Assembly: GCA_947632055.1 (NCBI GenBank)
Contig: CANRNS010000001.1
Coordinates: forward strand, 2,047 to 66,046
DNA from: an uncultured Akkermansia sp.
Lineage (GTDB): Bacteria; Verrucomicrobiota; Verrucomicrobiia; Verrucomicrobiales; Akkermansiaceae
Reading direction: 5' to 3'
DNA length: 64,000 bases
Below, in pieces: positions 1 through 35,444 of this stretch. Made by a program: the position numbers and the translations under genes. The notes under the pieces are model-generated. The model did not search any database and had not been told where the DNA came from. It saw only the letters and a list, made by a program, of their open reading frames with translations. Every line of letters starts with the position of its first letter. Within the stretch, counting starts at the first letter, position 1.

Positions 1-830
1 GCAAAGAACCATTTCCAATATCCTTCATTAGAGAAGTCGTGATCTCCTCGGAGCATCCATTCGTTTATAAACGAAAGTAATGCTTTTTTATGTTGATGAA
101 ATGCCTGCGCTGTTATAAGACCGCGCTGTCTAAAAGAGCGCATCAAATTAGAGATGTATACGTGACCGAATACATAAGGAACGCTATATCCTCCCTTTTT
201 AAAAGGAAGCCCAACACCGTCTAATATGAATTTGGAATATAATTGAACCTTCGAACCTGTTTCAATCATATTAAATGCGAGATCAACATGCGGGAACCAA
301 TGGTTCAAACGCCTACAAGACGTATCCAATGCTTTTAATAAAATATCTCTTCTACACACCCATGAACCATAATGTGTAATTTCTACGCCTTCTCTCATTA
401 CAAATTCGCTCGGATCTCCCAAGATTCCGCCTTCCTCCTCTTCATTGCAATGATAAGATAGGAAAATAATATCTTCAGTAGCTTGCTTCCTCAAGAAGGA
501 AACAAATTTCTCCAACCCTGCTTCTTTAAAATACGAATAATCATTGTTGAAGCGAACAAAATCGCCCTTTGCAAACTCAGTAACTCGATATAAATTATCC
601 CAAGAAATGGATTCCTCCCAACGATGATATACGATCTTATCTCCAAATCTTTCTTTGTACTCTCGGCAAATATCCGGCGTCTCATCCGTTGAAGCGTTAT
701 CAGAAATTACTATTTCAACATCGTTTGTCTGCTGGAAGATCTTTTGCTTTGTAATTTGCGACAGCGTATTATCCAAGACAATAGCTCGATTACACGTAGG
801 AATGCATATGGAAAGGATGGGTGAAATCAT
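1..830 (-). CDS. Glycosyltransferase family 2 (partial, runs off the left edge)
   Basis: Not in the ORF track. Manual translation from ATG at 830 gives MISPILSICIPTCNRAIVLDNTLSQITKQKIFQQTNDVEIVISDNASTDETPDIC, the classic GT2 N-terminus (IPTxNR, VISDNASTD). Confidence 0.85.
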   Translation of the reverse strand, partial: MISPILSICIPTCNRAIVLDNTLSQITKQKIFQQTNDVEIVISDNASTDETPDICREYKERFGDKIVYHRWEESISWDNLYRVTEFAKGDFVRFNNDYSYFKEAGLEKFVSFLRKQATEDIIFLSYHCNEEEEGGILGDPSEFVMREGVEITHYGSWVCRRDILLKALDTSCRRLNHWFPHVDLAFNMIETGSKVQLYSKFILDGVGLPFKKGGYSVPYVFGHVYISNLMRSFRQRGLITAQAFHQHKKALLSFINEWMLRGDHDFSNEGYWKWFF

Positions 831-855
831 TTTTTATTAGATAGTCGTTGATTGA

Positions 856-2133
856 TTATAGATTTTTCATGATTTGTTCACCGGAAATAAAAAGGGAAGC
901 CTTCCGAGCCCACTGTAATTCGCGGCATTTCCTCTTGATTATTCTTTTCCACTTCCCTCCCCATAAAAGATGATACACAACGCTCAAAAGCGCAATTCTC
1001 CACCGAGTTGCAACCACCTTCTTCTTGAGCGTGATGTAATAACAAATTTGGCAAAGGCTTAGCTGATAGTCATCATCTGAAGGATTTTCTTTCGCCCACA
1101 ACAATGCCCTCTCAAATTGGCATAGCCAATCAGATAAATATTTCAATGGGCACATCCCACCTACAAAATCCGTCATCCTCCTCTCTTTGAATAGCGCTTT
1201 CATTTCTTCGGTCATGCCGAGCATACACGGCCCGAAATGTGGTGCAGGAACAGGTATGATTTCTTCGTAGGCTTTTACCTCTGATACTCTCGCTCCAGCT
1301 GCATGCTGTACAACGGATTGCATCATTATACAAGATGGGCTACGTAATAAAAGAAGCAATTCCGTGCCTGGGTTTGAAAACACGATTGAGTGCGTCGCAG
1401 TCCCAAGGACACCGGCAACAACACAAGCGCCCTTAAAATACGCTATCTGATCTTCCAAGGGAAGTTTTTCCGGATAGATAATATGAAACCCGTTTTTACG
1501 AAAATTTCTCTCTATTTCTCCCTCTCCAAACAAACTTGTAGCACCGGTTTTAAATCTTTCCCTGCTCACGTATATCTTATCATACTTTTTAGCTTGCACA
1601 CGTTCTGCCACTCGTCTGAATGGTGTTATGAATTGAGAGGTATAGATCGGTTCGTTATCAGAGAGAGACGTATGGGGGATTAATATCTCGCTGAATTCGG
1701 TAGGCTGCTGCACAAAAAACGCATTTTCCAATATATTTCCACCGTACAAACGAAAGAAATCCTTGATAAAACTTGGGAGCTTGCCATCCCATCCCGGCTG
1801 CACTGAAAAGGCAATGCGCGCTTCTTTCTCTCTATTTTCAAGATACCATAAACGAACCGTGCTTTCTAAAAGAAAGTGTCCATAATGATCATATCTCAAC
1901 GGCCCCAGATAAATTACGGACTCATCGATCCTCTCTCTCGCTGGCATGAATATTTCAGGATGATACCCTCTTACCAATCCAGAATTTGAAACAAATTTCC
2001 CCGACGAATCCATCACTCCACAGCAACGCGCGAATCGAATATGATTACCAAAAACTTGGGGCAAAATGACTCCCTTTCGTATCACTTCAGCAATCATATT
2101 TTGCGGAATCATTTGTGGATGATTTAAAGTCAT
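856..2133 (-). CDS. Glycosyltransferase family 61 / DUF563 capsular polysaccharide biosynthesis protein
   Basis: HYGHFLLE, KIYVSR, IIYPEKLPLEDQIAYF and VVAGVLGTATHSIVF motifs typical of GT61; lies in a polysaccharide operon. Confidence 0.8.
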   Translation of the reverse strand: MTLNHPQMIPQNMIAEVIRKGVILPQVFGNHIRFARCCGVMDSSGKFVSNSGLVRGYHPEIFMPARERIDESVIYLGPLRYDHYGHFLLESTVRLWYLENREKEARIAFSVQPGWDGKLPSFIKDFFRLYGGNILENAFFVQQPTEFSEILIPHTSLSDNEPIYTSQFITPFRRVAERVQAKKYDKIYVSRERFKTGATSLFGEGEIERNFRKNGFHIIYPEKLPLEDQIAYFKGACVVAGVLGTATHSIVFSNPGTELLLLLRSPSCIMMQSVVQHAAGARVSEVKAYEEIIPVPAPHFGPCMLGMTEEMKALFKERRMTDFVGGMCPLKYLSDWLCQFERALLWAKENPSDDDYQLSLCQICYYITLKKKVVATRWRIALLSVVYHLLWGGKWKRIIKRKCRELQWARKASLFISGEQIMKNL

Positions 2134-2188
2134 AATATATTAATTAAGTGCACCAAAAATTTGTTTCATTCTTTAGGATGAATATTAA

Positions 2189-2446
2189 TCATGCGCCGAG
2201 ACAATACGAAGAAGCATTCTCATGAGGGCATTCTTCCCGTTCCAACTTCTTTTCCCACATCTCGGCAACCGCACGTACGTACTCCTTATGGTAAGCCTTG
2301 CTCTTGTTAAAGACGTCCACCTTCGCCTTCTCCCATTTCGAAAGCTCCTTGAGCTTTCTCTTGTAATATGTGTAGGCGATGAACCATGCCGCGCCCATGG
2401 CGTTCAGCATTTCCTCCGTCTCATTGTTTGGATTTTGAAGTTTCAT
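2189..2446 (-). CDS. Small hypothetical protein (possibly truncated)
   Basis: 85-aa ORF in the same orientation as the operon, visibly more GC-rich than its neighbours; no recognised motif. Confidence 0.4.
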   Translation of the reverse strand: MKLQNPNNETEEMLNAMGAAWFIAYTYYKRKLKELSKWEKAKVDVFNKSKAYHKEYVRAVAEMWEKKLEREECPHENASSYCLGA

Positions 2447-2571
2447 GGTATTGGATAGATTTAATGCTTCACAGATGAATTATGCTCACCGGCTTGGGAA
2501 TCACCTGCGTCTCTTCACCGAGTCGCGTACCAAGTCCACCTGCTAATAGGATAATTTGCATAAGTTTCTAA

Positions 2572-3615
2572 TCAAAAGGACGAAAGCGTTATGATTATTC
2601 CTTTCCTGCTCAGTTTCCGTCTTAAATACCTATAAAGTCGCAAGTATATTTTATATTTCACTCTTTTCCTCCACGTCATTGCGGAGACCGCTGCATCCTC
2701 TTCTTTGCTAACACTAGATTCACTCTTGACTAATTCTTTAAATCCATAATATAAAGCCACTTTTGCTGATTCTTGTACATCCTTTCCTTCAAGTTCATGT
2801 GTATCCAAATTATCAAGGCATGTCTTAAGGGTTTTTCTCATCAATCTCACATAAAAGTCGTGATATTTATAAGAAAAAAACCGATCAAAGGCTATATTGC
2901 CGTATATGTCCGCCGCATTTTTTTCATATTTGCTTAAGCCTGTCCACAAACCAGTACCAAGAATTCGGTATACACCGACTATACTATTTTGCAGATGTGC
3001 CTTGCCATACGACAAATGTAAAATAAAACGAAAAGTATCGCCACAGTATGCAAACTCAGACGGTGTGTCAATCGCTTCTGTAAGTATAGCTGGAATAGCC
3101 GGATATACTACGTTCCTGCATATTTGTCCTACCTCTTGTGGGACGTAAACTTTTCCATGAAGATAATCTTCAAAAGAAAAATCCGCCCTTTCTACCTTAG
3201 TGTCAATCCATGCCCACTTCTTCCCATGATCATCTACAAGAAGATTAGCCATGTAAATTGTGTAATCTTCGTGACTGTCTAGAAAATCAATCGCTTTTTG
3301 AAAATAATCTTTATCCGTGTAGTAATCATCAGCATCTAACACAGTAAAATAAGGTGTTGTTGTTTCCGATAATGCCCCTAAATAACTCCGGTACATCCCT
3401 ATATTCTTTTCACGATATATCACCCTCACCTTGTCCGGATATTGGCGTTCGTATTTTTGGATGATTTCAACGCTTCCATCAGTCGAGGCATTATCCACTA
3501 TCAGGATCGTATATGCAAAAGTCGTCCTCTGGAATAACGCTGATTCTATGGCTTGAGATACAAGATCTGCGTGATTATACGAACGCAGAATAATGGTTAA
3601 TTTGGGAGAATTCAT
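2572..3615 (-). CDS. Glycosyltransferase family 2
   Basis: SYNHADLV, IVDNASTDGS, NIG and LDADDYY (DxD) motifs. Confidence 0.9.
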   Translation of the reverse strand: MNSPKLTIILRSYNHADLVSQAIESALFQRTTFAYTILIVDNASTDGSVEIIQKYERQYPDKVRVIYREKNIGMYRSYLGALSETTTPYFTVLDADDYYTDKDYFQKAIDFLDSHEDYTIYMANLLVDDHGKKWAWIDTKVERADFSFEDYLHGKVYVPQEVGQICRNVVYPAIPAILTEAIDTPSEFAYCGDTFRFILHLSYGKAHLQNSIVGVYRILGTGLWTGLSKYEKNAADIYGNIAFDRFFSYKYHDFYVRLMRKTLKTCLDNLDTHELEGKDVQESAKVALYYGFKELVKSESSVSKEEDAAVSAMTWRKRVKYKIYLRLYRYLRRKLSRKGIIITLSSF

Positions 3616-3737
3616 ATAATTCTGTTTGTTTTTTATGTTGAGAAAACTTTATTTCGTCTTTATATTGCGAGTAGACATATCATGGTCTGGTCATTAATTT
3701 CATAGCTAAAAAAGGGGGGCTTTCTGACATCGGCAAG

Positions 3738-4706
3738 TTACTTACATCTCGTTGAATCGATCTCTTTAATGAGCGTCCACTTGGGCGAACAACAACATCC
3801 GATACTTTCCTTAAAAGTGCACAGCCCGTAATTAGGCACTCCTCCTACCGAGGCCGTCCCAATGTCTATTAATCTTGTCTGAGGAGATTTGTTCTTATAA
3901 TACTCAAACAGCTTGAAAGAGAGGAAATTAATGCTATTTAACCCCCTCGCGCTCGGCTCATTGCCCCAATACACCAACCTTAGGACCTGTGCGGTGAGAT
4001 GATGCACCATGGCCGCTGCCACTGCTACACCTGCAGAACTTTTAACCAGGAAGAAATCAGTCGGAATAATATGCATTGTTTGAAGCACCTCATCCAGCGT
4101 CATGCGCAAAGGATACCCTCTGGACTCTCGATTGTGCTTGATAATTTCGTAGGCAAGGGGAACATCCTCGGTCTTTTCAAAAGACAGACCGTAGGTTAGG
4201 GAATTCTGTAACTTTCCTTTGGCGTTCTTCTGAATTGTATTGATATACCCTTCATCAAAACGTCCCAATTCGTACTCATAGTTGATGTCACAAATGTCGG
4301 CTTTAAATCCGTGATTAACCAGAGTATTCAGAAATTTGGTGACATGGATGGTATCATAGGCGAGCGCCGGTAAGCCGAATTGAATGGCACGAATACCGGA
4401 TTTGCCGACATACAGGCACAATTGTTCGACAGCATCGCTATAATACTCAATTGGGTTATCATGGGCAACTTCCGAGAAAATAGCAAAGGTTGAAGAAAAG
4501 GGAGCTAAGAAAACTTGCTCCTTGATACCGGCCACCAGTCCGAATCTTACTTTGTTGTTTCTGAAGAGAAGGTATTTGACGGCATCAACTTTTCTCTTGT
4601 TCAACTCCACAAATTCCACTGTATCAAAATTAGAGAATGGCTGAGTAACCACTTTCGCGTACTCCTCCGCTGATATATCCTGTATCTCCATTGTATTTCC
4701 CGCCAT
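3738..4706 (-). CDS. GNAT/FemAB-like acyltransferase (polysaccharide modification)
   Basis: YWG..., LIDIGTASVGGVPNYGLCTFKESIG C-terminal motif typical of Acetyltransf_6/FemAB-like proteins in glycan loci. Confidence 0.7.
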   Translation of the reverse strand: MAGNTMEIQDISAEEYAKVVTQPFSNFDTVEFVELNKRKVDAVKYLLFRNNKVRFGLVAGIKEQVFLAPFSSTFAIFSEVAHDNPIEYYSDAVEQLCLYVGKSGIRAIQFGLPALAYDTIHVTKFLNTLVNHGFKADICDINYEYELGRFDEGYINTIQKNAKGKLQNSLTYGLSFEKTEDVPLAYEIIKHNRESRGYPLRMTLDEVLQTMHIIPTDFFLVKSSAGVAVAAAMVHHLTAQVLRLVYWGNEPSARGLNSINFLSFKLFEYYKNKSPQTRLIDIGTASVGGVPNYGLCTFKESIGCCCSPKWTLIKEIDSTRCK

Positions 4707-4767
4707 TGTATTGATGTTTATCCTTCGATGTTTAGCTCTTTCGCGAATATGGTTCTGTGTGGATCAT

Positions 4768-5731
4768 TTAAGAATGCTCTTTGATGATTTGAATCACTCG
4801 TTCCATGTCGTCCGTACGGTAACGCTGATCAATAATCAGAAGGTGCATATACCTCATCAAATAGGGCTCGTAACAAAACGATTCCTGATTCCTGATTCCT
4901 GATTCCTGATTCCTGATTCCGCCAGCACAATGGTATATATATCTTATTATCAATAAGATGCTTCCGTAACTGCTCCTTTTCTGTCAAAAAGGGATAGTAC
5001 ATCGGCACGTCATCATCAGACAGATCATGCTGAAAAAGATTATCGCGCTTCAGATGGTGATCCATGTAACGGAAGTTTTCCATGCGCTGCTGGCGCGTAC
5101 GGTCATAGTCAATGCTTTTAATGAGGCGCGTCGTTAAGTTTGACATCAGCTTGATCTCTTCCCCTATCAAGGAATCATCGTTCTTGTTGAAGTCGGCATA
5201 GCCAAAATTAGCGCCACCCTCAATGCGCATCAGGAGATGCGAAAAACGTTTGTAGCTCTCTTTATCCTGCTCGAGCGTGCCGGGTAGGTTTCTGGAGCAA
5301 TACACATAGCCCCCGTCGGGCAGACCAAAGAATTTGCGAGGAGAATACACGGTTGCTAGTCCCACCGGGGGAGCGTAAAAAGCTTGGGCATTGTCCACAA
5401 TAAGGTTTTTGTATCGCCGAGCCAACGCACGAACGTTCTTACCGCATACCCCGTAATAATTCGTGTAAAGGACGTAGTCATCGGTGCCAAAATCCCGATC
5501 CGGCATGAGGCGGCGGTCTATGTGATAGAAACGCACCTTACATGAGGCCTCCTCAATAGCTTGCCAAACAACGTGACACGTGTAATAAGGAACCCACATC
5601 TCCTTGATGTCATAGGCGCGGATGGCGTACACAATACCATTCCGGGCGTTATTGATGGGCAAAGCCCCATGGTGATAGTGCTCAGAAATGGCGCTTATTT
5701 CAAGCTCGATGTACCCTCCGATGTCTTTCAT
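4768..5731 (-). CDS. DegT-like PLP-dependent sugar aminotransferase family protein, currently frameshifted by a heptamer repeat (present reading stops at 4829)
   Basis: VPYYTC, TNYYG, IVDNAQAF and YSPRKFFGLPDGG motifs. The family-like C-terminus IIDQRYRTDDMERVIQIIKEHS* lies in another frame and ends at 4768. Confidence 0.75.
4880..4920 (-). repeat. Heptanucleotide tandem repeat (GGAATCA)x5+GGAATC inside a CDS
   Basis: Plus strand reads g-attcctg x5-attcc; seen directly. Confidence 0.97.
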
Positions 5732-6261
5732 CTTATGCCATCAAGATCCAGTGATTTTAATTTCCTAGCAGGCACCCCTGCATACACGGAGAACTCCTCT
5801 GTATCCTTAGTCACCACGCTTCCCGCACCAATAATGGAACCTTTTTTGAGGGTAACACCGGGCAATATGGTGACAGAAGCCCCAATCCAAACATCGTCCT
5901 CAATAGTGATTCTCTGTCCTTGCCTAATAAGATGGTCCCTCACGTAAGGCACACTACACAGCAGCGGAGAATTATTGGGTTCGCTGTCTAAAATAATTGT
6001 CACGTTGGGGGCAATGGAAACATGGTTCCCAATGAAAAGGTTTTTATAGTTATCCCCTGTCGCACATGACACCGTAAAACCCGGATTGACGAAGGAGCCC
6101 TCCCCGAAGTGCACACCCAGCTTTTGCCAATACAGACGTCGGGTGCGAGCATCGCCATAAAAGGCAGCAATCATCTTTGTCAATCGCAGCGGCATAATCT
6201 CTGCATGATTGCTGAGGAAATTGTATATCCTCTCATCGAGTGCCTGGAGAAATGTCTTCAT
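5728..6261 (-). CDS. Hexapeptide-repeat (left-handed beta-helix) acyltransferase
   Basis: ITIEDDVWIGASVTILPGVTLKKGSIIGAGSVVTKD...YAGVPAR. Start placed at MKTFL (6261), with an AAGGAGG RBS and ATGA overlap with the upstream stop. Confidence 0.9.
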   Translation of the reverse strand: MKTFLQALDERIYNFLSNHAEIMPLRLTKMIAAFYGDARTRRLYWQKLGVHFGEGSFVNPGFTVSCATGDNYKNLFIGNHVSIAPNVTIILDSEPNNSPLLCSVPYVRDHLIRQGQRITIEDDVWIGASVTILPGVTLKKGSIIGAGSVVTKDTEEFSVYAGVPARKLKSLDLDGIR

Positions 6262-6767
6262 GATCTTCTTACCTCCTTGATAAATTGTTGATAATCGCGG
6301 ATGTAATCGGCTTCGTTGTAATGCTCGCTGGCAAGCACCATCACCACGCAATCAGGGCTAAAATTGGTGAACTCGCGCCATAGGTTGGACTTAATATGCA
6401 GACCTACAGCGGGGTTATCCAAGTGAATAGTGGTGCGGTGTTCACCATCGTCCAAAATGAAGTCGCAGGAACCGGACGTACAGACGACCACCTGCTCCAA
6501 GTTACGATGAGCATGGCGCCCGCGCACCACGTCTTTTTGTGTTCCCCAGATGTAGTAAACGCGCTTGATGTCAAAAGGAAAATCATCCCCTTTTTCCAGA
6601 GCAACCAGTTTGCCGGAATAGTCGCCGTGGATCGGGAAATGCAACAGAGAGAAGCTTCTTGACTCATTGCTGCATGGGGCATGGTTTGGTTTAGAGGAGA
6701 AAACCTTCATACCTCGCAGATCCGGGTCACAGGAAGTCGTTCCTGTGCTCTGTTGCCTTATTTCCAT
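6258..6767 (-). CDS. fdtA: FdtA/QdtA-family dTDP-4-keto-6-deoxyhexose 3,4-isomerase (cupin)
   Basis: [19 protein letters not shown] and [15 protein letters not shown] motifs. Confidence 0.88.
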
Positions 6768-7846
6768 GTGTTGATTGCGTGAATTACTTCCCGAACCTCT
6801 TCATCGGTGAGCACAGGACTGATGGGAAGGCTGAGCACCTCCCGGTGGATTTCCTCCGTGATGGGGTACGATTGCTCTGCCCACTCGCTGTAGGCTCCCT
6901 GTTTGTGCGGTGGCGTCGGGTAATGGATATTCGTTTCGATGCCGTGTCGTCTCAGATACTGCTGTAAGTTGTCGCGCTCCTTGCAGCGCACCACAAATAC
7001 GTGCCATACGTGCGCTGCCTCATCATAAGTTTCTGGCAAAGTGATGAGCGAGTTGGTGATGTGCTCCCGATAGAAGCGTGCAATCTCGCGGCGTCGGGCG
7101 TTATCTGCATCTAGGTGAGCCAGACGCACGTCCAGCACAGCAGCTTGCAGCTCATCCAGCCGCGAATTGGTGCCTTTGTAGATGTGGTGATACTTGTAAT
7201 CAGACCCGTAATTGGCGAGGGCCTTTACTTTTTCATAAAGCGCGGCGTCATTCGTTGTGATGCCACCCGCATCCCCCATCGCACCGAGATTCTTGCCGGG
7301 GTAGAAGGAGAATGCTGCTGCATCGCCAAGATTGCCCACACGTTTTCCACGGTACATCGCCCCGTGTGCTTGAGCCGCGTCCTCAATTACCTTCAGACCG
7401 CACCAACGAGCGACCTCCCACACCTTCTCCATCGGCGTAGCCTGTCCGTAGAGGTGCACCACCAAGATGGCTTTGGTGCGAGGCGTGATAGCTTCTTCAA
7501 TGCGTCCCGGGTCGATGCAATAGGTCGTAGGATCCGGCTCCACGAGCACAGGCGTGCAACCATTCTGCGAGATTGCCAGAATAGAAGCAATAAAGGTGTT
7601 GGCGGGCACAATGATTTCATCCCCATTGCCGAACCCGTACGCTCGGATAATGAGGCTGATGGCTTCCAGTCCATTCGCAACGCCGAGGCAATACTTCGTA
7701 CCACAGTATTCGGCAAAGTGTTTACAAAACTTCTCGTTTTCCTCTCCTTGCAGGTACCGGCCGGAGTCCAGCACAGCCCCTATCCGTGCGTCCATTTCTG
7801 CACGGAAGCGCTCGTTAATTTTTTGCAAGTCGAGAAAGGGGATCAT
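6758..7846 (-). CDS. fdtB: DegT/DnrJ/EryC1/StrS aminotransferase (FdtB/QdtB-like)
   Basis: [39 protein letters not shown] and [10 protein letters not shown] motifs; adjacent to fdtA. Confidence 0.88.
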
Positions 7847-7861
7847 GACGGTAAAAGAAAG

Positions 7862-8983
7862 TTACTGGGCAGATATATGATAGGCAACAATGCCTTTAAA
7901 GTAGCCACGACGCCTGAGTTTTCGTGACAGTGATCTCCATATTTTATACATAATCTTCTCCATGGGACCACGTAAGATGGGAGGATCGAATATGACGTAG
8001 TGCCCAGCAATTTTTGACTCTTGCGTAATTTTCATGAAATCTTTAGCAAGAAAGTCATAGGACTTCTCTAGGTAGTCGCCGTTCTGGAGCGCAAAATCAT
8101 ACAACAGACTAAGTCCCGCCGCACGAATGGACGGAACCGGACTTCCGACGAGCACTAACCCGGCGTAGAAAGGAATATCTCTGTCCACCATGTTTTCATA
8201 GCGGGTAAACTCCGGAAAGATTTTCCGGAACTGCTGGACATCTGCAATCTTCTTCACGCAATCTTTCAACATCAACTCCATCTCACTATAAATTGCACTG
8301 AAATTCTCAACCGTCCACGCCGATAAATTCCCTCTATTCTCACGTCTTCTGTAATATGTCAGCGGAGTCTCCGACTGCGCCATGTCAGAGTTGAGAAGCA
8401 AACGTATGTGCCATTCATAATCTTGGGTCAAACGCAGAAGAGGATTAAGCTTACCTACCTGATCCACGCATTCCCGCCGAATCATCATTCCTGGCACAGG
8501 TAAACAGTTCCCCTCCGTAAAGAGAAATCGCAGTACGTCCCAACGATCCATTTTTTCATGAACATCGATGGAAAAATCTATAGGCTCATTGTCTTCTCCG
8601 ATGGGTATTAAGTCATTGTACAGTACAGAAACATTCTGATGGTGTTCCAAGAACTCATAATCATGGGCCAGTTTCCCTTTTACAAGGCCATCATCCACTG
8701 ACATGCAACATACATATTCACCGTTTACTTTTGATAATGAATGGTTGAACGTGTGACAGACGTGGCGATTCCGATCATTTTTGTAAACGCGGATTCTTGG
8801 GTCGGAAGTATAGCTCTGCAGAAGTCTGTAGGAGTCATCTGTGGAACAATCGTCCGTCACAACCAGTTCCCAATTCGTGAAGTCTTGCTGCAGGAGACTC
8901 TCCATGAAAAAGGGTATGTACTTCTCGTGGTTGTAGCACGTGGTACTAATGGAAATTGCCGGTTGCTCGTTGGGTGGTGTCAT
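7862..8983 (-). CDS. Glycosyltransferase family 2
   Basis: CYNHEKYI, VTDDCSTDDS, SVDD and QDYEWHIR motifs. Confidence 0.9.
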   Translation of the reverse strand: MTPPNEQPAISISTTCYNHEKYIPFFMESLLQQDFTNWELVVTDDCSTDDSYRLLQSYTSDPRIRVYKNDRNRHVCHTFNHSLSKVNGEYVCCMSVDDGLVKGKLAHDYEFLEHHQNVSVLYNDLIPIGEDNEPIDFSIDVHEKMDRWDVLRFLFTEGNCLPVPGMMIRRECVDQVGKLNPLLRLTQDYEWHIRLLLNSDMAQSETPLTYYRRRENRGNLSAWTVENFSAIYSEMELMLKDCVKKIADVQQFRKIFPEFTRYENMVDRDIPFYAGLVLVGSPVPSIRAAGLSLLYDFALQNGDYLEKSYDFLAKDFMKITQESKIAGHYVIFDPPILRGPMEKIMYKIWRSLSRKLRRRGYFKGIVAYHISAQ

Positions 8984-10134
8984 AAATCTGCTGTTTGTAT
9001 GATTTCTTCTAACCGCGAAATTGCCTCTGAAGGGCTGAAGCGCCCCAAATTCTCCGTGGCTTTACGGATCTTTCCTTCCCGTTCTTCCGGATGTCTCTCT
9101 ATGTTTTCCAAAACCTGCGCAAGCGATTCCGGATTCCCCGCTTCAAACAAGTAGCCCGCCTCACCGTGCATGAGAATTTCTGCCGGACCGGAGGGCACAT
9201 CTGAACTCACAGCCGCTACTCCGAGAGCCTGTGCCTCTATGAGCACCGTGGGCAAACCCCCGCCCACAGTCAAGGTAGAGGATAAGATGAGGGCTTGAGC
9301 AGAGCGAATCATAGGATATGGATTATCTAATTGCCCGGTAAATATAATGCTTCCATTTGCTACTTCATTGGTGACCAATTCTTGAAGCTCATCAAGCTGA
9401 GGTCCGTCACCGACAATGACAAGCGAGTATTCGGGGTGCTTCCTCTTAAACAAGGCAAAACCCCGGATAACCGCGGGCACATCCTTATCAAGTGCATTCA
9501 AACGTTGCACTGCTACGAAATAAGGCGTGGGAGAGCCGGTCTTCTCCATACTGCCAAGGTGGCGGATTTCCTCAACATCAATGGGATTATAAATGCAATA
9601 CGTCTTATCGACCCACCTGGGATAGAGCCTCTTGAAATCTCGGATAAAGGCATGACTCAAGCACACAATGCGATCATAAATATCTATGTTCCCTTTTGAA
9701 ACATAGTTCTTGAAAAAAGTGATGCTGCCATGGCATACTCCAATTTTTCTCTGCGGCAATTTTGCTAGGTAAGGAGAAAAGCCGAAATTACAAAAATCTA
9801 TTACAACATCACAATCCCACGCATATTCGACAAGCGCAAATCTCGTGGGTATTTTTGCTGCCTCTCGTCTCATCCTGTATATCCAGCACGCGAGAAAATT
9901 TCTACGTCTTCGAGGAGGCACGTGTATTCCCACAACGCACAACTCTATGGAATGCTCAACAAAATATTGCAAAAAATAAGAATCACTCACATCTGTCAAA
10001 CTTGCAACCTTGCATTTATATCCCATGCTGTTCAGCTGACTCAAGTAGTTAAGCAACACCTTTGCTATACCTCCCATAACAACCCTATCGACGCAAAATA
10101 AAATTACCTTTTCACCTGTCTTGTTCATTTTCAT
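8980..10134 (-). CDS. Glycosyltransferase family 4 (GT-B)
   Basis: MGGIAKV, IYNPID, LVIVGDGP and GLPTVLIEAQALG...SSDVPSGPAEIL motifs. Confidence 0.9.
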   Translation of the reverse strand: MKMNKTGEKVILFCVDRVVMGGIAKVLLNYLSQLNSMGYKCKVASLTDVSDSYFLQYFVEHSIELCVVGIHVPPRRRRNFLACWIYRMRREAAKIPTRFALVEYAWDCDVVIDFCNFGFSPYLAKLPQRKIGVCHGSITFFKNYVSKGNIDIYDRIVCLSHAFIRDFKRLYPRWVDKTYCIYNPIDVEEIRHLGSMEKTGSPTPYFVAVQRLNALDKDVPAVIRGFALFKRKHPEYSLVIVGDGPQLDELQELVTNEVANGSIIFTGQLDNPYPMIRSAQALILSSTLTVGGGLPTVLIEAQALGVAAVSSDVPSGPAEILMHGEAGYLFEAGNPESLAQVLENIERHPEEREGKIRKATENLGRFSPSEAISRLEEIIQTADL

Positions 10135-10219
10135 CTCTTTTCATGCCTATTTCTGCTCGTTTTAACATCCAAACTGCACACTGCATACCGGCACGATGGC
10201 TAATAACTCAGGAGCGTTC

Positions 10220-11026
10220 TTAAGCATAGGCTTCTCCTTTCCGTAGGGCCTTTTTACGGTACACAGGTATGCGGAAGAAACGCACACATACTTCTCCTGA
10301 GTCTTTTTCCTGTCGGACAAAAAAGAATCGAATCAAGGATGATAAAGCTCGATAGTGACGCATGAAGGGGTGTTTGCTACACATGGCTCTCAGTAGCTCC
10401 TTTGTTGCCATCCGGGTTTCCGAAGTCATGGAATTATCGCGTATGAGATAAACGAACAGAGGCTCCCGTACGCAGTAAAAACTTTTCCCCTCACCAATGA
10501 AGTTCATCCAAAATTCCCAATCTTCCAAGCCCTTGTTCATGACGGTATCGTAGCCCCCGTAACGTTCCCAATCCCTCTTGCGGAAGAGAGCGGAGGCGGA
10601 CAGACAATTGGCTCGCGACATGCTCAACTTGGTGGGCCTTACGTAGCGCATGATACCGGAGCGAGCTCCTGCGTAACGAGTGAGCGGATAGATAACATCC
10701 CCAAGGTGCCGCGCATTATATAGCTTTTCAAGACAGGAAGGCTCGATCCTATCATCGGAGTCCAATGGGAAAATCCATTCTCCTTTGGCCGCCTCTATAC
10801 CGCAGTTTCGTGCAGCGACTAGCCCACGATTTTCCTGCGTGAATACACGAATGCGAGAGTCGCGTGCCGCATAGTCCGCAAGGATGTCTCCGCTGCCGTC
10901 CGTGCTTCCATCGTTGATGCAAATAGCTTCCCAGTCCTCAAAAGTTTGGGCAAGCACACTGTCCAAGCACGACGAAAGATACTTTTCGTTGTTATAGACC
11001 GGGATGATGATGGATATTTCAGGCAT
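10220..11026 (-). CDS. Glycosyltransferase family 2 (first gene of the operon)
   Basis: ISIIIPVYNNEKYL, INDGSTDGS, ENRGLVAARN, LDSDD and EDWEFW motifs. Confidence 0.92.
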   Translation of the reverse strand: MPEISIIIPVYNNEKYLSSCLDSVLAQTFEDWEAICINDGSTDGSGDILADYAARDSRIRVFTQENRGLVAARNCGIEAAKGEWIFPLDSDDRIEPSCLEKLYNARHLGDVIYPLTRYAGARSGIMRYVRPTKLSMSRANCLSASALFRKRDWERYGGYDTVMNKGLEDWEFWMNFIGEGKSFYCVREPLFVYLIRDNSMTSETRMATKELLRAMCSKHPFMRHYRALSSLIRFFFVRQEKDSGEVCVRFFRIPVYRKKALRKGEAYA

Positions 11027-11101
11027 ACGGTGAACGCGAACATACCCGCATCCGAAGAACTATAAGCTTCCTCCACGAGTCCGCGCTGCCCCGATTATCT
11101 C

Positions 11102-11279
11102 TTTTTGAAAGAGATATACTGAAGACAATGGAATTAACTTATTGCATGTTAGGAACTCATGATATTTTGCAATTCAAAGTATCGTTGGATACGACCGACA
11201 ATCTCTCTAAGCTCAAATGATTCTTAGTGATTTTTATTCAAAAATATGTGATTTTAGGCTTGATAATCTCTTTCAAAAA
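11102..11279. promoter_or_regulatory. Putative invertible promoter segment bounded by a 14-bp perfect inverted repeat
   Basis: tttttgaaagagat (11102-11115) and atctctttcaaaaa (11266-11279) flank an AT-rich segment immediately upstream of the polysaccharide operon. Confidence 0.65.
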
Positions 11280-11396
11280 ACGATGCTCGTATCTCCTGCA
11301 TCAGAGCCAGAGCAAACGCATTTTTTCATGCGTTTGCCCTATTTTGAGGCATTCCAGACTATACAATGGGGTGCAGGTATGGTATATTGGCAGAGT

Positions 11397-14300
11397 ATGG
11401 GAGTACGAAAAGTTTTATCAATTTGCTCGGTCCTGACTGCGCTGGCTATGGCTTGTAATGTGGCTTCAGCTGCGCAAAGCGGCGACTTTGCCGCGTTGAA
11501 GGCTCACTGGAGTTTTGACGAAGGTCGCGATTGGCACTACATGCCGATGCCGTATAAGTACGATGGAGTGAAAGCCACTGAACTGACCGGTAAAGCTGAT
11601 GATCTGCTACTGAATGAGAAGCAGAAGGCCGATAATGAGGCCTGGGTATCGGGTCGCCAGCGTTCCGGCATAGGTCCCGGGCACGTGCTCACCACGACGA
11701 AGGAACTGCCCTGTCTGAATGGATCGGTGACTTTCTCCTACTGGACCCGCCTGTACGGCGAACCGAACAAGCGCGGAGTTGTCGGCTCCACGCCCCCCAC
11801 GCCCTCCACCCAGTGGGGTGTGATGAATGCAAAAGGTCAAGTTGGCATGCGAGTCAATGGTAAAAACATAGTTTTTTCTCCCACACCCATTACGGATACG
11901 GATTGGCACCACGTGGTCTTTACTCGCGATGAGGAAACAGGCAAGGTTGTTCTGTACTTGGATGGTAAAGAAGTAGCCACCGGCGACACGCCCGCAGGCA
12001 AACTCCCCGGGCAATTTACCTCCATGACCACCAACAATGCAGCGTTGGACCAGATTCATATCTTCGACAAGCCAGTATCCGCTAAAACCGTTGCCGCACT
12101 GTACGACAACCATGCACCCCAGGTGTTCAACCAAACTCATTTGGTGGAGAAATCCAAACCTTCCGTAACGGGCAGCATTCTGCACCAATTTACGTACGAT
12201 GTCGATCAAGACAAGCTGCGCGTGGCCAGCTATTCCCAACCCAAGGGGGGCAAGGTGAAAAGCAACGGCGATGGCACCTTCACCTTCACTCCCGGCAAAT
12301 CCTTCAAGAAAAAAGGTAAAACATCTTTTGACGTCATTGTAACGGATGACCGCGGTGGCTACACCAAAGCTACCATGTACCTGCAGGACAGCCGCCACTT
12401 GGTTGCCCCACCCGTGCGTGAGTTCCGCTACTTCAGCGCTCTGCCGGAGATTCCCGCCTCCGACGGCAATCAGATGAAGCACCGCAATCCCATGGTCATC
12501 AGGATTCGTGGCAAAAAGCCAGATTTGCTTATTCAAGCAAATTCCCGCCTGTGGTACTGCATGAACGAATCCAAGCCCGGCAAAATTCTCTTCTCCAAAC
12601 CGCAAATGCTGCGTACCACCAAGCAGGCCGACTTTGAGACAGACGGCGCTGCCGTGCTTGAAGGCAACAAACTCATTATTCGCAAGCCTGATGGTACCTT
12701 GACTATGGCGACAGTTGCGGGTAAAGACAAACCAGCCTTGGAGATTGGTAACGCCATCACCGATACCACCGGAGCAGCCATGAATCTGCCGGTTCGCCAC
12801 TTTGTGCTGATCGACTACGACCACGATGGGACCCCGGATATTGTAGCCGGATTCAACGACGGCCTCTACTACTTCAAGGGCAAAGCAAAGTACAGCAAAA
12901 CTTCCAACGACACCAAGAAAATAGTCAGCATCAGCTTTGCCCCGGAGAAACAGCTGGTGCACCTGGGGCTTTACAACATTTCACCCGGCGTGGGCGATAT
13001 CAACAACGACGGCCGCACCGACCTCCTGTACGGCATTAACTGGGGCACGCTTCACGTGTGGATCAACGAACCCGCTAAAGCCACTATTTCCGACGGCGCC
13101 TTCATGGACCTAACTCTGGAGGATCCACCGAACGAGAAGTTTTTGCGCAACCTTAACGGCGCCCACCTGGCCATAGCAGATTTTGACAATGATGGAACGC
13201 CGGACATGATTCTTGGCGGCAGCGCCAACAGTGATCTGGCAAGCGCTTTGGGCGTGAATCTCGACACATTTGCAGGCAACCTGGCTCTCATCGAGAAAGA
13301 GCTCTACAAGGGCCACGAGAATGATCTTGGCAAGGTGCTTGAGGCTGACGGGCAGAAAGGCCTCAATCGCTACCGCCAACTGATGAGCAACTGGATTCGC
13401 TGGGCTGTGGCACAGAACACTCCCGCCAAGCGCCAAGCCGCCTGGGATATGCTCGCCGCTCACGTGAAGAAGTGGCCCTTCTTGCAGCGCCGCGTGCTTG
13501 AGGATGCGTGGGTAAAAAAGGAAAAGGGCGAAGTCACCAGCTATGGCAAGATGCACCACGTTCCCGGCATCTTTGCCATGAACTGGGTTGTGCTTCGCCG
13601 CTTGCTGCCGGATTCCGCCAATCACCGTAAGGCCGTAGCTGATGCCCTGGGCATAACCGGACTGGGTCGCGAAGCTTATTTAGACAAAGGCATGCCCTTG
13701 GCTGACAACAACCGCTGCACCGAGGGACAACTGCGCGCCGTATGGGATTTGCTGCGCTACCATGCCCCTATCCTCTTCCCGGATGACCACATCTCCATCG
13801 GACAGAACTACGAGGACGGTCGAGATGCGATGTGCTACGTCTTTACGTCCAACAAAAACACCTTCTGCTCGGATGTAGGTAACAACGTCGCCGAAATGAA
13901 CGGCGACATGGTTCAATTGACAGAGGAATGCTTCGGAACTAAGGGCGCTGCGAATGGCGACTACTTCACCTTTGTGCTTTCCCACGAGGTGTGCCACTCG
14001 CTGGATGCTTATGTGAGAGAGCGCACCGCTAATGACTTAAAACGCCGCTGGGGCGACCAGAATTTCTACGCTGCCACCAATGCCGGCACCAACTCCGACA
14101 TCGTCGCCAATGAAACAGGCTGGTGGGATCTCGACCTCACCAAGGCTCGCTTTAAGGAGCGCGGTCTGTGGGATGGGAATAATGAAACTTGGAATGACGC
14201 ATGGAAAGAGTATTGGCAGAAGTGCCCCTACCGCAACAAGGTCTTCATGCGCGGTGATATAGATTGGTTCCTCGGCTCTCAGCAAGAAACCTTTTCTACT

Positions 14301-14648
14301 CAGGCGAATCACCACTGGGCCCGCTCCGAGGCCCGCCTCATTGGCGCCATTTTGCGCTACTTGCAGGGTTACAAGTCCAATATCAACGAGGTTGTCTTCT
14401 TTCTGGATGTCCTCTCTGCCGGTCAGAACAAGCTTCCCATGTTCCACCCCTGGGCCTCCGGCAAACCCGCCATCGTAAACTTCAACGTGGAATACGCTTG
14501 GCTCACCCGTAACGACAAAGGCTATATCACCGATATCCGCATCGGCGACCGCCACTACGGCTTCGAAGTAGATGAGCAAGGACGCGTCATCGGTCTGCGC
14601 ACCTACCCCTTCGCCGACAAAATTCAAGCCGCTGCAAAAAAACAATAA
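11397..14648 (+). CDS. Secreted multidomain protein: LamG/ConA-like + Ig/cadherin-like + FG-GAP repeats + C-terminal HExxH region
   Basis: Signal peptide from MGVRK (11397). AHWSFDEG, WHHVVFTRD...LYLDG (LamG); DVDQDKL...NGDGTFTFTP (Big_9-like); DYDHDGTPDIV, DINNDGRTDLL and DFDNDGTPDMI (FG-GAP); HEVCH at 13983-13997. Confidence 0.8.
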   Translation: MGVRKVLSICSVLTALAMACNVASAAQSGDFAALKAHWSFDEGRDWHYMPMPYKYDGVKATELTGKADDLLLNEKQKADNEAWVSGRQRSGIGPGHVLTTTKELPCLNGSVTFSYWTRLYGEPNKRGVVGSTPPTPSTQWGVMNAKGQVGMRVNGKNIVFSPTPITDTDWHHVVFTRDEETGKVVLYLDGKEVATGDTPAGKLPGQFTSMTTNNAALDQIHIFDKPVSAKTVAALYDNHAPQVFNQTHLVEKSKPSVTGSILHQFTYDVDQDKLRVASYSQPKGGKVKSNGDGTFTFTPGKSFKKKGKTSFDVIVTDDRGGYTKATMYLQDSRHLVAPPVREFRYFSALPEIPASDGNQMKHRNPMVIRIRGKKPDLLIQANSRLWYCMNESKPGKILFSKPQMLRTTKQADFETDGAAVLEGNKLIIRKPDGTLTMATVAGKDKPALEIGNAITDTTGAAMNLPVRHFVLIDYDHDGTPDIVAGFNDGLYYFKGKAKYSKTSNDTKKIVSISFAPEKQLVHLGLYNISPGVGDINNDGRTDLLYGINWGTLHVWINEPAKATISDGAFMDLTLEDPPNEKFLRNLNGAHLAIADFDNDGTPDMILGGSANSDLASALGVNLDTFAGNLALIEKELYKGHENDLGKVLEADGQKGLNRYRQLMSNWIRWAVAQNTPAKRQAAWDMLAAHVKKWPFLQRRVLEDAWVKKEKGEVTSYGKMHHVPGIFAMNWVVLRRLLPDSANHRKAVADALGITGLGREAYLDKGMPLADNNRCTEGQLRAVWDLLRYHAPILFPDDHISIGQNYEDGRDAMCYVFTSNKNTFCSDVGNNVAEMNGDMVQLTEECFGTKGAANGDYFTFVLSHEVCHSLDAYVRERTANDLKRRWGDQNFYAATNAGTNSDIVANETGWWDLDLTKARFKERGLWDGNNETWNDAWKEYWQKCPYRNKVFMRGDIDWFLGSQQETFSTQANHHWARSEARLIGAILRYLQGYKSNINEVVFFLDVLSAGQNKLPMFHPWASGKPAIVNFNVEYAWLTRNDKGYITDIRIGDRHYGFEVDEQGRVIGLRTYPFADKIQAAAKKQ

Positions 14649-35050: not shown

Positions 35051-35375
35051 AGTATATCTCTTTTCAAAAGAGATATACTCGTCACGAAACTATAAATTAT
35101 TTATTATCAAATAATTATATATTAAAAAGTGCTTTCGTTTTTTCAAGGAGCGAAGAAGCATTTTTTTCTTGTGTCATACTTCATTTTCAAGGTCTTTGAG
35201 CTTGCAAGCGAGGCATCTCTTTTGAAAAGAGGTAGACTTTCTTTCGTTTCTCTTATTGATTGATCGGCAACGTTTAGAAAGTATCAATTTCTTTCGGGTG
35301 CGTCAACAGAAGATCCTGAGAAATTTTTTCAAAATTTTTGAAAAAGAAACTGGACATTGCTTTTGAAAAGAGATA
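35051..35375. promoter_or_regulatory. Putative invertible promoter region with three related sites (A 35051-35079, B 35215-35238, C 35360-35375)
   Basis: A/B form a perfect 17-bp IR (35058-35074 vs 35215-35231). A/C form a perfect 16-bp IR (35055-35070 vs 35360-35375). AT-rich interior directly upstream of the autotransporter. Confidence 0.7.
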
Positions 35376-35444
35376 CACACTCCGTAAAACAATTAGAGAG
35401 AGGGAGGGAAAGAGAGAATCATGACGTAGCAGGGAACAATGTGC

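Follow-up and report, generated by a model that had tools for sequence, protein, structure and literature searches.

In Bacteroides, capsule invertons hold the promoter wholly inside the invertible segment, which is bounded by repeats of the ARACGTWCGT type and is turned by the global invertase Mpi, a serine recombinase. The fimS element of Escherichia coli is a single locus of 314 bp with a complete promoter inside and with dedicated recombinase genes adjacent to it (FimB-FimE). Inversion at the capsular polysaccharide loci of B. fragilis was reportedly described by Krinos et al. in 2001, and Jiang et al. are said to have reported promoter invertons adjoining Akkermansia capsule loci, together with an inverton motif, in 2019. 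Invertons are numerous in Akkermansia (PMC10028968). A. muciniphila contains about 32 invertons of one group, with 17-bp inverted repeats about 157 bp apart, some of which lie beside autotransporters (PMC11892184), and its capsule locus cps1 was found to be switched by an inverton, using PCR, qPCR and long reads (PMC13343947). Promoter invertons which adjoin Akkermansia capsule loci are thus already published (mBio 2026).

The element described here was found in a window of 64,000 nucleotides, this being the whole stretch of DNA analysed, from a rabbit-gut Akkermansia metagenome-assembled genome (MAG) of 2.12 Mb (G000; 151 contigs, 87% complete, GC content 54.7%). It resembles the A. muciniphila invertons (group 138, cps1) in belonging to the same genus, in its intergenic position and size of about 190 bp, in its occurrence in dozens of copies per genome and in the proposed ON/OFF phase variation. 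Repeats of 17–19 bp around a segment of 150–160 bp, beside capsule or glycosyltransferase (GT) loci and genes for giant autotransporter-like proteins, are likewise common to both. The family to which the element belongs has 19-bp sites, segments of 120–151 bp and 37 loci, with GT or sugar genes and genes for proteins of 1000–7300 amino acids as neighbours. The recognition sequence is a different one: unlike the CGGATT..AATCCG motif of the A. muciniphila type, it reads ATCTCTTT-NNN-AAAGAGAT. Searches with the literal published motif CGGATTNNAATCCG, a palindrome with a 2-nt gap, gave single chance-level hits in 101 genomes of the genus and none in G000; the literal reading is probably wrong, since the notation probably means left and right arms, and the scan is therefore a weak test. 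Unlike cps1, where switching was demonstrated by PCR, qPCR and long reads, the inverton of the glycan operon is described here from its sequence.

The whole element measures 188 bp (11097–11284) and is situated upstream of the glycosyltransferase operon. It contains a perfect 14-bp inverted repeat, tttttgaaagagat at 11102–11115 and atctctttcaaaaa at 11266–11279, with 150 nt in between, which grows to 24 nt at 83% complementarity; the pair brackets a short intergenic segment, 68 nt from the start of the first GT2 gene. With up to two mismatches, the 14-mer occurred seven times in the window, compared to 0.45 expected occurrences. Each 14-bp arm sits within a 19-bp near-palindromic core site of the general form given above. 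The left core site, ATCTCTTT-TTG-AAAGAGAT (11097–11115), is a near-perfect palindrome with an asymmetric centre; the right core site, ATCTCTTT-CAA-AAAACGAT (11266–11284), has two mismatches in its outer half-site. The centres TTG (left) and CAA (right) are reverse complements of each other, and it is solely by this asymmetry that the two sites are mutually inverted. One of the two departures from the consensus in the half-site AAAACGAT is absent from other good sites, and the same half-site with its two mismatches is common to all four paralogous copies of the element in G000.

The inner segment of 150 bp (11116–11265), which would be the invertible part, is AT-rich toward its right end and lacks a complete sigma-70-like promoter; it carries only a -35-like hexamer, TTGATA (11260–11265, plus strand), which directly adjoins the right site on its inner side and is preceded by an AT-rich tract. 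A -10-like hexamer, GATAAT (11094–11099, minus strand), spans the outer boundary of the left site, with GAT coming from the site and AAT from the fixed flank, followed by the GC-rich CGGGGC. The composite of the mobile hexamer with this fixed -10 is predicted. The repeat and both hexamers had been listed in the first-pass annotation, which had overlooked the 19-bp core sites around the arms; the coordinates and letters of the repeat, the TTGATA abutting its right arm and the minus-strand GATAAT were exact on re-reading. Its further statement, that inversion would yield TTGATA-16-GATAAT near the GT2 start, was reproduced in silico: inversion of 11116–11265 placed TTGATA, 16 nt and GATAAT on the minus strand, about 61–67 nt upstream of the GT2 start codon (11026), with the -10 end 67 nt before it. 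This composite matches 10 of 12 consensus positions, with A2 and T6 present, and the left site would then read AAAGAGAT joined to TATCAAGCC at the junction. A sigma-70 scan of the present orientation detected no promoter which faces the GT operon, in agreement with the annotation, and none within the segment. The composite would be weaker than TTGACA-17-TATACT of other family members, due to its 16-bp spacer and the GATAAT hexamer.

The polysaccharide or glycosylation operon (3–11026, minus strand) runs off the window. From 11026 downward it encodes, uninterrupted, GT2, GT1/GT4, GT2, a DegT aminotransferase, two unassigned ORFs, GT2 and GT61; its distal part has a GC content of 40–46%. Its leader (11027–11093, minus strand) has homologous leaders in G000 at contigs C24 and C25. 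On the other side of the inverton, a terminator-like hairpin with a T tract (11312–11337, plus strand; fold -22.9 kcal/mol, z -3.6) precedes the LamG gene and would stop rightward transcription. Dozens of copies of this hairpin, GCAAACGCATTTTTTCATGCGTTTGC, with 90–93% identity are scattered in the genomes G111, G072 and G047, and it appears to represent a family of REP-like elements or terminators in these Akkermansia genomes. The gene for a secreted LamG/cadherin-like/FG-GAP protein (11397–14648, plus strand) lies outside the switch. It had been suggested in the first annotation that this gene possesses an extended -10 of its own; the sigma-70 scan indeed found TATACA-17-TATATT with a TG extension (TATACA-17-tgGTATATT; 11360–11388, plus strand). 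In G014, the closest sampled relative, conservation of the LamG gene and its promoter starts at about window position 11340, and upstream of that point a putative tRNA gene (recognized by eye) and unrelated genes are present, with no GT operon and no site. The LamG gene is thus independent of the switch, which by the same synteny belongs to the glycan locus.

The GC content of window positions 1–6000 is 40–46%, compared to 54.7% genome-wide, and the whole operon is missing from the syntenic place in G014; together these two observations suggest that this region is a horizontally acquired, species-variable glycan island. Inside one of the unassigned ORFs of the operon (4880–4920) a perfect heptamer tandem repeat, GATTCCT × 5.9, was noticed, which could possibly be a slipped-strand switch layered on the inverton.

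For an estimate of the size of the family, sites with at most two mismatches to ATCTCTTTNNNAAAGAGAT were counted, with the reversed genome as control. G000 contained 94 such sites, the reversed genome none. They form 48 adjacent pairs at about 37 loci, and 46 of the 80 perfect inverted-repeat pairs in G000 (at least 13 bp, 60–600 bp apart) belong to the same family as the glycan-operon inverton. Three classes of inner segments can be distinguished by length, at about 147–151, 136–140 and 119–122 nt. Loci with two sites adjoin glycan genes (DegT, GT8, dehydratase/epimerases, GT92/GT2, ATP-grasp), and those with three or four sites adjoin genes for very large proteins of 1061 to 7320 amino acids. 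The centre triplets differ among loci and include TCA, TCG, TTG, TTA, TGG and CCC. Among 101 sampled genomes of the genus, the motif with at most one mismatch was present in 20 and abundant in about ten; counts at this threshold were 74 in G000, 55 in G047, 49 in G111, 33 each in G058 and G072, 19 in G043 and 18 in G014. Motif-bearing records with titles are designated "uncultured Akkermansia sp.", and most of them are MAGs from rabbit gut ("Lapin"); the sequencing runs which contain the window region are rabbit-gut metagenomes as well.

A member with three sites is present in the window itself at 35055–35378, between the genes for a 4831-aa and an 1171-aa protein, and similar switches occur in G000 on contigs C12, C39, C47, C66, C101 and C107. 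Their layout is S1 (centre TCA), a segment of 136–140 nt with a hairpin and a T run, S2 (TGA), a segment of 120–122 nt which terminates in CTGGAC before the last site, and S3 (TGA). Since S2 and S3 are direct repeats, only the inversions S1 × S2 and S1 × S3 would be allowed, and these loci are predicted to be switches with four states between two divergent genes. Some other palindromic repeat pairs were seen in G000: CGTATTTATAATACGTATG, about 150–170 bp apart, at C38:5782–5950 and C2:32740–32903, and ATCGGACAAAAAT at C95 and C10. They may represent further small inverton families.

Tyrosine recombinases need a homologous overlap region between the partner sites for strand exchange. The centre triplets were reverse-complementary in 36 of the 48 adjacent pairs of G000, versus 12.5 on average and never more than 23 when partners were shuffled (5000 trials), and this matching within pairs fits such a need; each of the 10 pairs with directly matching centres is the extra segment of a multi-site locus. 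On loci of related MAGs the result was replicated, with matching centres in 24 of 26 pairs. The sites have two inverted arms around an asymmetric, partner-matched centre, as would be expected for core sites of a tyrosine recombinase. Comparisons of colinear loci provided direct views of inversion. In L077 (Lapin-024) and L093 (Lapin-003-2), assemblies from two different rabbits, the flanks are colinear (alignment of 913 nt, 91%, with the mismatching inverted part included), and the 195-bp element between them is 100% identical on the opposite strand; a similar arrangement was found within G000 between two paralogues, C66 and C101, whose flanks are colinear and whose first segments are 88% identical in reverse. 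Inversion of family members other than the glycan-operon copy is thus shown by sequence comparison.

The ends of many contigs in several MAGs lie exactly one base beyond a core site, which is the behaviour expected of an assembler when both orientations occur in a sample. Such ends are found in G000 at C2:5, C8:65, C31:57, C102:35 and C118:2, and elsewhere in L069, L075, L088, L094, L096, L098 and L099; L088 is a contig of 2.8 kb with two inverted sites at its bounds. L093 (CANQDA010000094.1) is binned as "uncultured Lachnospiraceae bacterium", contains five sites of the family and is 91–100% identical to an Akkermansia MAG contig; it is probably mis-binned.

Several regularities around the sites argue for a promoter which is divided between segment and flank. 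Throughout G000 the pentamer T[TG][TG]AC stands directly next to a site 30 times on the inner and once on the outer side, and on the related MAG loci 24 times and 5 times, respectively; with the first base of the site it forms TTGACA or TGGACA. In the subfamily of the glycan-operon copy the hexamer is located one base further out and reads TTGATA, TTGATT, TTGACA or TTGACT. On the outer side three classes of flanks were distinguished: A[TCA]AC[TA], which together with the last T of the site gives TATACT, TACACT or TAAACT at 17 bp; AATC[GAT], which gives GAT/AAT at 16 bp (the slash marks the edge of the site); and G[CA]GCA, with nothing -10-like. Homologous 5' ends of GT2 genes, with their leaders and invertons, were found in other species in the orientation opposite to that of the window copy, with a predicted ON composite TTGAYT-16-GATAAT. 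It reads TTGATT-16-GATAAT in G072:C16 and TTGACT-16-GATAAT in G111:C9, where a second GAT/AAT flank and a divergent GT2 gene are present on the far side; G043:C111 has the same composite, and a further one occurs in L082, whose -35 end is almost identical to that of the window copy. GAT/AAT is retained in the flank also where the segment faces away. The ON geometry is conserved in these relatives, and we infer a promoter function of the composite.

Members of the subfamily were also seen between two divergent GT2 genes with GAT/AAT on both outer flanks, namely in L033 (G111:C9) at 1627–2010 and in L077 at 6055–6241, with its counterpart in L093. With GAT/AAT on both flanks, the L077/L093 element would toggle between two divergent operons, and in L033 as well as L077/L093 one mobile -35 would switch between two glycan operons instead of ON and OFF.

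Two other explanations of these data have to be considered. The sites could be paired operators, about 168 bp apart and acting by looping, or else the termini of a miniature transposable element which became inserted many times, in either case with no inversion in place. Every site is palindromic and in this respect operator-like, and short, numerous elements bounded by inverted repeats are reminiscent of MITEs; however, an element in both orientations between the same flanks at 100% identity (L077/L093), and likewise the paralogues C66/C101, would not be expected, nor would centre triplets which are matched within pairs and different between loci, or a -35-like hexamer so strongly restricted to the inner side (30 versus 1). 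Target-site duplications or direct repeats outside the sites were not found. Both readings were rejected on account of the L077/L093 inversion, the missing target-site duplications and the matching of the centres, and the chance that either is correct seems negligible. The element could, on the other hand, be a real inverton whose promoter is not split, with a complete non-canonical promoter, a terminator or an insulator inside the segment. The hairpin with a T run in one segment of the three-site members would suit such an arrangement, and an ATAC extension, which stands beside many sites, could mimic a -10; it is frequent on inner ends, too, so that the "-10" signal may in part reflect sequence of a recombinase arm. 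Against this, the segment is without a complete sigma-70-like promoter, TTGAYT-16-GATAAT is found again in other species at precisely the point where the flank of a GT gene and the -35 end come together, and GAT/AAT is kept in the flank even with the segment facing away. A switch without a split promoter is thus considered very improbable, and an inverton with a split promoter is the preferred reading for the family.

The state of the glycan-operon copy was followed in public assemblies. Four ENA contigs carry its GT2 gene; the three which were read, from three samples (ERZ27249325, ERZ27249596, ERZ27249106), bridge GT2, inverton and LamG, and over 450 nt across the inverton they are identical to the window, with the same OFF orientation. 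The fourth contig, the sequence of which was unseen, was reported as similar. The paralogous copies in G000 (C7, C24, C25) are 88–92% identical and have the same orientation, with the -35 end facing the AAAACGAT half-site. No flip at this locus was therefore seen in the four bridging ENA contigs and the three paralogues. Logan contigs from rabbit-gut runs break at 11009 and 11260, with none bridging the element and no strand-change joint listed; they are silent on orientation because they are broken at paralogous repeats. Neither junction state of the locus was matched as an exact pattern in the collections metagenome_contigs and genome_contigs (the window's own records excluded), and alternative LamG products of 1083, 1121 and 1143 aa, by which flipped contigs could be caught, had nothing on record. 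Assemblies show the majority state alone, here at a coverage of about 5×. With no promoter facing the operon in the assembled orientation, the glycan-operon switch is OFF in every available consensus.

This uniformity would also be expected if the glycan-locus copies were locked or decaying switches which no longer invert, due to the degenerate right outer half-site, the operon then being permanently silent or expressed from a different signal. One orientation in all four bridging contigs and all four paralogous copies speaks for this, as does the conservation of the 2-mismatch AAAACGAT across the four copies; furthermore, contig C1 is unbroken at the site, unlike those of many family members, which are found at contig ends. 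But AAAGCGAT, which is one step from AAAACGAT, is common in sites of apparently fully functional loci, the centres are still perfectly matched (TTG/CAA), and at that coverage a consensus would conceal a minority state. The -35, the AT tract and GATAAT with CGGGGC are, moreover, intact in four copies whose overall identity is 88–92%, and together with the matched centres this argues for continuing selection. A loss of inversion therefore appears unlikely, although it deserves more weight than the two explanations discussed above, and the AAAACGAT half-site may either bias the glycan-locus copy to OFF or lock it. The element is probably a promoter inverton, one of a lineage-specific family in Akkermansia, and a live ON/OFF switch, whose own flipping we infer from its sequence and its relatives.

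Concerning the enzyme, no serine recombinase (PF00239) was found in the 87%-complete MAG. Its tyrosine recombinases (PF00589) comprise six paralogues, plus two Xer-like proteins and two phage-type integrases. Three of the paralogues, encoded on C20, C26 and C130 (P0001 type), have 333 amino acids and 86–93% identity; the other three (C64, C67, C71) are at about 40%. The paralogous family is represented by 2–18 copies in nearly every genome of the genus, and orthologues of P0001 with at least 85% identity occurred only in motif-bearing genomes (G111, G014, G058, G047, G072, G073), with homologues of 71–75% identity in G091. This joint occurrence is consistent with enzyme and site having co-evolved; it is confounded by shared ancestry, and the 333-aa type is therefore a candidate only.

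The following mechanism is proposed. Two inverted 19-bp core sites, each consisting of the 8-bp arms ATCTCTTT and AAAGAGAT and an asymmetric 3-bp centre, bracket the 150-bp segment. The segment would be flipped by strand exchange inside the matched centres, carried out by a tyrosine recombinase whose gene lies elsewhere in the genome and which is most likely one of the three 333-aa paralogues. The segment would bring an AT-rich upstream tract and the -35 TTGATA at one end, the 19-bp site would serve as promoter spacer, and the -10 GATAAT would be shared between the outer end of the left site and the fixed flank on the operon side. With the switch OFF, the -35 would point at the degenerate right site and the terminator-like hairpin; in the ON state, inversion would form TTGATA-16-GATAAT upstream of GT2, and the operon would be expressed.

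A wider reading, which joins the site as spacer, the mobile -35, insulation by the centres, the recombinase set and a built-in OFF bias for this clade of rabbit-gut Akkermansia, has perhaps an even chance of being right in all its parts. About 37 switches would each move a half-promoter of -35 and UP sequence among fixed -10 halves; ON/OFF switching would result where one flank is without a -10, as in the glycan-operon copy, and toggling where a -10 is present on both sides (G111:C9, L077/L093). Recombination between switches would be prevented by centre triplets specific to each locus, a few paralogous tyrosine recombinases with newly evolved site specificity would drive all of them, and the degenerate outer half-site of the four glycan-locus copies would constitute the OFF bias.

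In comparison with the more distant systems, the likeness to the B. fragilis capsule invertons consists in several glycan loci per genome with a short invertible promoter region, and in combinatorial surface variation. The present MAG, as far as its 87% completeness shows, has tyrosine recombinases only, unlike B. fragilis, and the promoter is apparently split. The analogy with B. fragilis drawn in the first-pass annotation is therefore right with respect to the outcome, but the published Akkermansia invertons, including the cps1 switch, are a closer precedent; its view of a family with split -35/-10 geometry, linked to a polysaccharide operon, gained support from the ON copies in three other Akkermansia species and from the identical element flipped between L077 and L093. 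With fimS and FimB-FimE the element would share promoter inversion by a tyrosine recombinase and half-sites around short inverted repeats, and the asymmetric half-sites of fimS, which lead to a directional bias, may have a counterpart here in the degenerate right half-site. Unlike fimS, there are about 37 loci, the promoter appears to be split, and no recombinase gene was noted alongside the sites, the neighbours of which were not surveyed systematically.

A -35 and a -10 split across a recombination site were described in none of the A. muciniphila inverton papers examined, and no paper combining "split promoter" with inversion or phase variation was among the matches listed; the split architecture may perhaps be previously undescribed. 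What is new here is the recognition sequence and the proposed division of the promoter, whereas promoter inversion beside Akkermansia capsule loci was already known, and no new principle of phase variation is involved.

Akkermansia is a candidate probiotic, and both its association with mucus and its colonisation are influenced by the capsule and by surface proteins (PMC13343947). Akkermansia lineages from non-human hosts would appear to apply the same strategy of phase variation to several of their glycan loci through another recognition sequence, so that these elements would escape inverton searches based on the A. muciniphila motif; the split architecture would mislead programs for calling orientation which expect a whole promoter within the inverton. 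The recombination site apparently doubles as promoter spacer, which would be a compact design for ON/OFF switching or two-way toggling, and the simple pattern of the sites lets a whole regulon be read.
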